Below are positions 23,680 to 23,832 of a stretch of 64,000 bases of DNA, piece after piece. A program made the position numbers and the translations under genes. Numbering within the stretch: position 1 is the stretch's first letter; each line of letters begins with the position of its first letter. The stretch covers positions 32,001 through 96,000 of the IMG/VR virus record IMGVR_UViG_3300035696_000013; one strand, written 5' to 3'. This DNA is from a virus. The notes beneath the pieces were generated by a model that was given only the letters and a program-made list of their open reading frames with translations, was not told the DNA's origin and searched no databases.

Positions 23680-23832
23680 GGGCTTGTCGTGGTGAACTAG
23701 CATGCCGAAAGCCGATAGCTGAGGTCAGCACATTAGGCCAATGTTGCCTCTGCTCAGCATGAACAGCCGCAAGGCACGTTCTTCAGGAAGGCCGAGATGC
23801 ATAGTAGGGGTTCGATTCCCCTCAAGTCCACC
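23680..23832 (+). ncRNA. Miniature tmRNA-TLD-like RNA
   Basis: GGGCTTG/CAAGTCC-ACC (G3:U70, A73), stemless D loop, P2-like ACTAGCAT/ATGCATAGT, canonical T arm; only ~153 nt. Confidence 0.65.

Follow-up and report, generated by a model that had tools for sequence, protein, structure and literature searches.

A 153-nt alanine-type tRNA-like unit without a D stem or anticodon arm in the tRNA array of a huge-phage record

A 'TLD only' tmRNA has been published from Mycobacterium phage DS6A and proposed to serve as a decoy (Hudson, Lau & Williams 2014, PMC4131195), and a TLD-only molecule strongly inhibits tmRNA, perhaps via titration of SmpB, according to Mao et al. 2009 as cited in the same paper (PMC4131195). 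The idea of an SmpB decoy is therefore not new, having been in print for DS6A since Hudson et al. 2014. The DS6A molecule is represented here by locus L113 479-561 (83 nt). A second set of described RNAs belongs to Ro60: Ro60 proteins bind Y RNAs, and the bacterial and phage forms YrlA and YrlB mimic tRNA (Chen et al. 2014, PMC4201824). As described in that work, GNCGAAN0-1G is the Ro60-associated Y-RNA motif, nearly all YrlA genes lie within 4 kb of Ro60 and usually on the same strand, and the YrlA of M. smegmatis is cleaved by RNase P and gains CCA (PMC4201824).

Here, we describe a 153-nt unit of a phage tRNA array that resembles each of these systems in part. The window analyzed (64,000 nt) covers bases 32001-96000 of a 132,623-bp IMG/VR virus record (CheckV completeness 41%), a huge-phage record whose DNA is found in peat metagenomes. 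Contigs from two peat runs contain the stretch of the unit without any difference, and the record may have come from these runs. We favor reading the unit as a chimera derived from tRNA(Ala), whose effect as a mimic would be weak at most; this preference is tentative, with doubt slightly outweighing belief.

The unit within the tRNA array

Twenty-seven tRNA genes were found in the window by ARAGORN, and Rfam at its gathering thresholds gave 26 tRNAs together with a bacterial class A RNase P RNA. At default settings, ARAGORN reported no tmRNA in the window, and its result for the whole 132,623-bp record was the same. The RNase P RNA is full-length (22516-22878, + strand; 266.9 bits, model positions 1-367) and sits inside the phage tRNA array, immediately 3' of tRNA-Ala(tgc). 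In one relative (L014), the onset of RNase P-RNA-like sequence was judged by eye to lie at about 8970. An 88-nt tRNA missed by ARAGORN (20187-20274, +) was recovered by Rfam with 45 bits.

The candidate (23680-23832, +) is one unit of this array, between tRNA-Ala(cgc) at 23519-23594 and tRNA-Glu(ttc) at 23839-23913. Array units are set apart by AGTTT-type spacers behind the encoded CCA, and the candidate begins exactly 5 nt past the CCA of the previous unit, behind the usual AGTTT (23675-23679, +); this spacer, shared by most array units, is expected to mark an RNase P site ahead of G1. The 7/7 partner of the 3' acceptor strand is unique within 45-329 nt upstream of the T arm. Since this acceptor closure is the only one and the start falls exactly where a new unit is expected, the candidate was accepted as a real unit. 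A terminator-like hairpin lies at 22233-22250 and a weaker terminator-like site at 22343-22357, overlapping the tRNA-Cys/tRNA-Ala junction; none was found from 22358 to 23992 on the + strand, the part that holds the candidate.

The preliminary description of this DNA had proposed a miniature tmRNA-like RNA with an alanine-identity tRNA-like domain and no evident mRNA domain, and its anatomy proved correct: the acceptor/T-arm domain is of alanine identity, and an anticodon arm and a credible tag are both missing. The acceptor stem is built from GGGCTTG (23680-23686, +), which holds G3 of the G3:U70 pair, and CAAGTCC (23823-23829, +), which holds U70, with seven of seven positions paired as claimed. 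Discriminator A73 (23830, +) and CC (23831-23832) follow; the base after CC is a T, so CCA is incompletely encoded, and the G3:U70, A73 and 3' CCA of a tmRNA-type acceptor are thus all present save the terminal A. A 9-nt linker, TCGTGGTGA (23687-23695, +), contains GG and replaces the D arm; it has no 4-bp D stem in register, in agreement with the stemless D region first reported. The T arm, AGGGG-TTCGATT-CCCCT (23806-23822, +), is canonical with a 5-bp stem, as had been stated, and T arms of tmRNA and tRNA type match it locally. Together with its preceding base, it forms an 18-nt stretch (23805-23822) identical to tRNA-Ala(tgc) of the window (22435-22508). The candidate's acceptor differs in 3-4 pairs from those of all three tRNA-Ala genes in the window and is still fully paired. 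Neither ARAGORN nor the Rfam tRNA model RF00005, a cloverleaf with D and anticodon arms, calls a tRNA on the candidate.

Between the linker and the T arm, the minimum free energy (MFE) fold predicts a long-arm (P2-like) helix whose 5' strand (23696-23703, +) pairs with 23797-23805 (+), the latter touching the T arm. It encloses a 93-nt interior (23704-23796, +) that has no tRNA or tmRNA likeness and no Rfam match at E≤10. The two internal hairpins reported earlier, GCTGAG/CTCAGC and GCC-GCAA-GGC (the GCAA hairpin, 23761-23781, +), are both part of the MFE fold, as is the P2-like helix. Compared with dinucleotide shuffles, the whole RNA is unexceptional (-49.2 kcal/mol, z = -0.47; 61 of 200 shuffles fold as well), and interior pieces do no better than shuffles (z = +0.56, -0.37, +0.10 and -0.72), the only exceptional one being the 21-nt GCAA hairpin (z = -2.82; 1 of 200 shuffles). 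The P2-like helix has 8 bp and one bulge, and a helix equal to it or better arises beside the T arm in 8.2% of 5000 interior shuffles (p ~0.08). The helix is thus predicted at a level not clearly above chance, and the interior fold is not above chance.

Other genes of the record were noted in passing. An amino acid:DNA transferase (PF18724, 73 bits; window 9500-10714, - strand) lies near a P-loop kinase-like gene (7170-7814, -), a pair that suggests hypermodified thymidine in the phage DNA. Outside the window are a fusion of inorganic pyrophosphatase-like and RelA/SpoT parts (G000:C1:101119-103620) and a 1164-aa 2'-5' RNA ligase/LigT-domain protein (G000:C1:105345-108836), and the record also encodes a peptide deformylase and a ClpB-like AAA protein. 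As predicted from their sequences, these four products point to a heavy investment in RNA- and translation-related functions.

tmRNA models and the decoy reading

The proposed kinship with the tRNA-like domain of tmRNA was not supported by comparison with the tmRNA covariance model. In full-length alignment to RF00023, the candidate scored 18.8 bits against a cut-off of 47, near the 18.6 bits of a tRNA-Pro from the same genome, whereas a same-genome tRNA-Ala reached 33.2 and the DS6A molecule 43.2 bits; the consensus CGAC / G-AC flanks are absent. When Rfam was run in E-value mode, the candidate gave 17.3 bits with beta_tmRNA, 17.0 and 15.6 with permuted tmRNA, and 11.6 with tmRNA, and these matches cover only the T arm and the 3' acceptor strand. 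No pseudoknot PK1 was aligned by the covariance models or reported by ARAGORN at default settings, at which no resume codon, tag frame or stop was found either. None of the available tests places the candidate in the tmRNA family, and it should not be annotated as a tmRNA, whichever reading of it holds.

Several relatives do carry tmRNA genes, in each case elsewhere in their genomes. Two-piece (permuted) genes are present in G001-G003 and a standard tmRNA (150 bits) in G005, at loci L063 638-988, L064 248-593 (-), L065 189-593 (-) and L055 1501-1846. The tags of the two-piece forms are ANAPKAMAAHA, ATAPKALAMAAAA and DTENITANAPKAMAMAAAA, and that of the standard form is AEFEELPLAA. Genes of the two-piece kind hint that the hosts are alphaproteobacteria. 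ARAGORN found no tmRNA in the closest relative, G004, and the genes that flank the relatives' tmRNAs are absent from our 41%-complete record. The interior of the candidate shows no likeness to these tmRNAs, with 166 to 300 of 300 shuffles scoring as high. An interior likeness to the relatives' tag region that had been picked out by eye was likewise not significant by shuffles.

Could the candidate nonetheless be a genuine one-piece tmRNA of minimal size, whose short tag (for example ARHVLQEGRDA, then two stops) is not a degron? The interior holds open frames beginning with GCN, and ARAGORN proposes the ARHVLQEGRDA frame when relaxed to an 80% threshold. However, the default run is empty and the relaxed call is itself labeled 'Tag not identified', in keeping with the first observation that no tag is evident. 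The proposed tag also enters the helix beside the T arm, and its last residues are DA, where the relatives' tags read ...AAHA and ...AAAA; the other two of the three candidate frames are broken by a 1-nt deletion in a variant contig (see below). Nor does the interior resemble the relatives' tmRNAs (above), and we regard a minimal tmRNA as very improbable. The acceptor piece of a two-piece tmRNA, which the preliminary description had named as the case against its own view, does not apply to this locus and was discarded, since the two acceptor strands are found in cis, in the usual order. No match to smpB (PF01668) was found in the 132-kb record, an absence that says little because the record is incomplete (41%) and smpB is expected in the host, which would supply SmpB.

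A selected decoy of the TLD-only type is a separate matter. Under this explanation, the alanine-type domain would bind host SmpB, and perhaps EF-Tu and AlaRS, thereby blocking or diverting ribosome rescue. The candidate has G3:U70, A73 and a T arm and lacks a D stem, anticodon arm and tag; DS6A offers a precedent with reported inhibition of tmRNA (PMC4131195), and the relatives' two-piece and standard genes represent an investment in tmRNA. On the other hand, the RF00023 score is level with that of tRNA-Pro and lies under those of tRNA-Ala and DS6A, the CGAC and GGAC flanks of the TLD consensus are missing, the candidate is twice the 83 nt of DS6A with an unexplained insert, it has no homologues, and its CCA is incompletely encoded. 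We consider a selected decoy unlikely. A shorter unit was seen in the array of a relative, G002 (L009 19243-19304 = L109 2035-2096): it has 62 nt, G3:U70, a T arm, ACCA and 22.5 bits with RF00023, and its acceptor strand is followed by TCACGGC, as in the coding piece of the two-piece tmRNA of this phage group. Judged by these features, this unit may be a TLD-only mini-tmRNA that exists alongside a real tmRNA.

Relatives and origin of the unit

Related loci were gathered in two ways. A ribonucleotide reductase gene 7 kb upstream yielded 39 viral loci (several on contigs of 260-460 kb), and the protein of a neighboring gene yielded 9 metagenome-contig loci. The candidate element was absent by BLAST from all of these loci and from five whole related genomes, and the same set contained no sequence match beyond the T arm. 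Exact-word scans of viral contigs (IMG/VR) with the 3' end and three interior words returned 0, 0, 0 and one match, the last by chance in a coding region; two interior words scanned in the genome collection returned 0 and 0. A scan of viral contigs for the 5' motif plus T loop gave 37 matches and no acceptor-closed homologue, seven being YrlA-type loci and the rest adjacent tRNAs. One apparent homologue with a 151-nt closure (L011) was discarded, as the closure came from a chance match between a 7-mer lying upstream and the acceptor of an ordinary tRNA-Ala.

In the two closest relatives (L012, which is G004, and L106), the order is tRNA-Ala(cgc), 34 nt, tRNA-Glu(ttc) and tRNA-Glu(ctc). As the syntenic site holds just these 34 nt, the candidate and the unit preceding it are lineage-specific. 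The comparison with G004 is not a close one, since DNA identity to the record is only 64-74%.

The single sequence that resembles the interior comes from a low-depth 443-nt contig, which matches only 23708-23790 (about 87% identity, with 10 differences and one gap) and whose flanks are unmatched. The contig is from run X1, and run X2 has a counterpart that likewise shares just this part. The matching part corresponds approximately to the region enclosed by the predicted long arm. Its changes cluster at RNA positions 61-78, and one of them, G78>A, would break the GCTGAG/CTCAGC hairpin unless compensated. This contig may indicate that the interior is a module borrowed from another element; alternatively, it may be an orthologue in which the core is conserved while the stems have diverged.

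The array itself has clearly been rearranged. A tandem duplication at 22961-23275 (+; 148 bp, 2.1 copies, 98% identical) repeats tRNA-Gly(tcc) and joins a tRNA-like unit's 5' half with the 3' strand of the YrlA-like RNA next to it, giving a chimeric unit that apparently arose by recombination between similar D arms. Three array units are non-canonical. ARAGORN reports a 'tRNA-???' with a shortened anticodon loop at 21783-21852 (+; Rfam 33.7 bits). The unit just 5' of the candidate (23602-23674, +; 73 nt) has a 7/7 acceptor that includes G3:U70, followed by A73 and a complete CCA in the DNA. A canonical T loop is missing, no tool calls the unit, and its fold has z = -2.13. At about 23250-23352 (+) lies a ~103-nt tRNA-like unit whose acceptor reads GCTCGTG/CACGAGC; it has a D arm and a middle that is too large, and neither ARAGORN nor Rfam makes a call for it.

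In an array that rearranges in this manner, a tRNA-Ala gene with a replaced middle is a simple origin for the candidate, and tRNA-Ala genes beginning with GGGCC occur in relatives. The middle of an alanine tRNA gene would have been replaced during rearrangement, and its ends would now frame ~110 nt of unrelated sequence. Given the failed tmRNA tests and the lack of relatives, the candidate probably either arose as a by-product of recombination or mimics tRNA as a young gene.

The behavior of such an RNA can be outlined from what is known of tRNA substrates. An acceptor/T-arm minihelix suffices for RNase P, G3:U70 suffices for AlaRS, and alanine minihelices are AlaRS substrates; from these properties we infer that the candidate is probably processed and charged. 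It would be transcribed within the tRNA-Cys to tRNA-Glu block and cleaved ahead of G1 by RNase P, an enzyme whose RNA the phage also encodes; its 3' end would be trimmed to ACC and then completed by the CCA-adding enzyme, and AlaRS would probably charge it through G3:U70 and A73. Without an anticodon arm, it cannot decode. It would at most soak up factors that bind the acceptor and T arm, namely AlaRS, EF-Tu, the CCA enzyme and perhaps SmpB. We see no sign of selection shaping it for a factor-binding role and lean toward a by-product of recent origin or, at most, a mimic of little effect.

A chimeric origin is consistent with several observations: (i) the unit boundaries, the acceptor closure and the T arm are exact; (ii) CCA has degraded to CCT in the candidate, while a full CCA is encoded by 13 of the 15 ARAGORN tRNAs between 21690 and 23992; and (iii) the recurrence of the interior with unmatched flanks would fit a borrowed insert. 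Other observations pull the opposite way. A perfect acceptor stem and T arm are equally fitting for a purposeful gene, and an acceptor that differs from those of the window's tRNA-Ala genes yet is 7/7 paired hints at selection, or at a donor tRNA from outside this genome. The variant contig, if it is a conserved-core orthologue, could argue for a functional interior, and TLD-only RNAs are already a published phage feature (PMC4131195).

An intron within a tRNA-Ala gene, spliced out to leave a normal tRNA, would also account for tRNA-like ends, and the unit at about 23250-23352 similarly has tRNA ends around an oversized middle. However, ARAGORN in intron mode is empty at default settings, and when relaxed gives only a poor call spanning two units; the insert is not flanked by a D arm or anticodon halves, and no Rfam intron matches. 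At 93-110 nt, the insert is far under the size of self-splicing group I introns. An intron is hardly credible here.

If the candidate is indeed a by-product, rearranging tRNA arrays yield chargeable tRNA-like RNAs, raw material for tmRNA-like or Y-RNA-like molecules. If the phage instead makes use of it, a second and structurally different case would be at hand of a phage RNA whose mimicry is confined to the amino-acid-accepting half of a tRNA or tmRNA, found in huge phages of soil bacteria and offering a handle on how they tamper with ribosome rescue or tRNA-handling enzymes.

The phage Ro60 protein and comparison with known RNAs

The record encodes a full-length TROVE (Ro60) protein outside the window (G000:C1:123258-124670, +; PF05731, 68.8 bits), which matches TROVE chains in the PDB with E 1e-28 over residues 16-459. 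No Rfam RNA adjoins its gene, which lies 67 kb from the candidate and 68 kb from the best YrlA match of the genome. Pfam was run on 102 of 142 ORFs picked in the record (8 at E 0.001 and 94 at 1e-5), and no tRNA-dependent aminoacyl transferase was found among these 102 ORFs at those cut-offs. In the tRNA array, the RNase P RNA is directly followed by the best YrlA match (22888-23010, +), which scores 24.1 bits with RF02553 against a cut-off of 69 and has a T arm, an acceptor-like stem-loop and a D arm. YrlA-like RNAs also occur in relatives, with 44.6 bits in the tRNA array of G004 and 38.8 bits in G001, which has a TROVE gene as well. RF02553 at E≤10 gives eight matches in the genome, the candidate not among them; several other YrlA hits are the dimeric-tRNA artefact of which Chen et al. 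2014 (PMC4201824) warn.

In seven unrelated viral contigs (L068, L071, L074, L075, L088, L100 and L101), tandem Y-RNA-like genes were observed, with YrlA matches of 31-55 bits. Each of these matches is preceded by a second element starting with GCCAATCGTGGTGAAGG, which is possibly YrlB-like.

These findings raise the possibility that the candidate is a tRNA-framed carrier of a functional insert, perhaps a Y-RNA-like partner of the phage Ro60. Its tRNA ends would provide processing and stability, and its long arm, with a GNCGAAN0-1G-type motif, would bind Ro60, making the candidate a topological permutation of YrlA. The sequence GCCGAAAG at 23704-23711 (+; RNA positions 25-32) does fit GNCGAAN0-1G, and a near copy, GCCGAGATG, sits in the strand that runs into the T arm. 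A full-length TROVE protein with no Rfam RNA beside its gene, the presence of the genome's best YrlA match in the candidate's own array, and an interior better conserved than its flanks in the variant contig would all agree with such a partner, as would the cutting by RNase P and the added CCA known for the M. smegmatis YrlA (PMC4201824). Against it, the 6-letter motif is short, and we estimate that about 7% of sequences of 153 nt would contain it by chance; where it lies, and how far from the T arm, is also unlike YrlA. The candidate has no D arm, no acceptor-like stem-loop and no RF02553 match even at E≤10, and local alignments to six YrlA-like RNAs were not significant, the best being equaled by 34 of 500 shuffles. 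We rate a carrier of a functional insert, the Ro60 partner included, as distinctly unlikely. More improbable still is the specific form in which a circularly permuted, tRNA-framed Y RNA is released by RNase P, is chargeable by AlaRS and tethers the phage Ro60 (TROVE) through its long arm; were it true, RNA surveillance would be linked to the translation machinery during infection.

Set beside known RNAs, the candidate overlaps with each in a different part. With tRNA-Ala, it shares the acceptor stem with G3:U70 and A73 and, in the case of tRNA-Ala(tgc), the 18-nt T-arm stretch, but it has neither a D arm nor an anticodon arm, is ~80 nt too long and is not called by tRNA models. With tmRNA (ssrA), in its one- and two-piece forms, it has in common the G3:U70/A73 acceptor, the T arm and a predicted long helix in place of the anticodon arm; unlike tmRNA, it has no resume codon or tag and no detected pseudoknots and stays below the model cut-off, and it bears no sequence likeness to the two-piece tmRNAs of G001-G003 or the standard tmRNA of G005. 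YrlA and YrlB (RF02553) resemble it in their tRNA-mimicking, non-coding nature, in the T arm and in a GNCGAAN0-1G-type motif; in contrast to them, the candidate has a reversed topology, ending at the acceptor stem, and it lacks both the D arm and an RF02553 match. By genomic context alone, it can be likened to RNAC and RNAD of phage T4, small stable RNAs described as having no assigned role that lie within the phage's tRNA cluster (PMC3014915, PMC9697503). The TLD-only tmRNA of DS6A, like the candidate, is phage-encoded, has an alanine-type acceptor stem and a T arm, and lacks a D stem, an anticodon arm and a tag. It is, however, an 83-nt molecule that reaches 43.2 bits with RF00023 and keeps the consensus CGAC / G-AC flanks around its P2 helix, whereas the candidate, with 153 nt, 18.8 bits, no such flanks and a 93-nt unrelated interior, falls outside the DS6A type.
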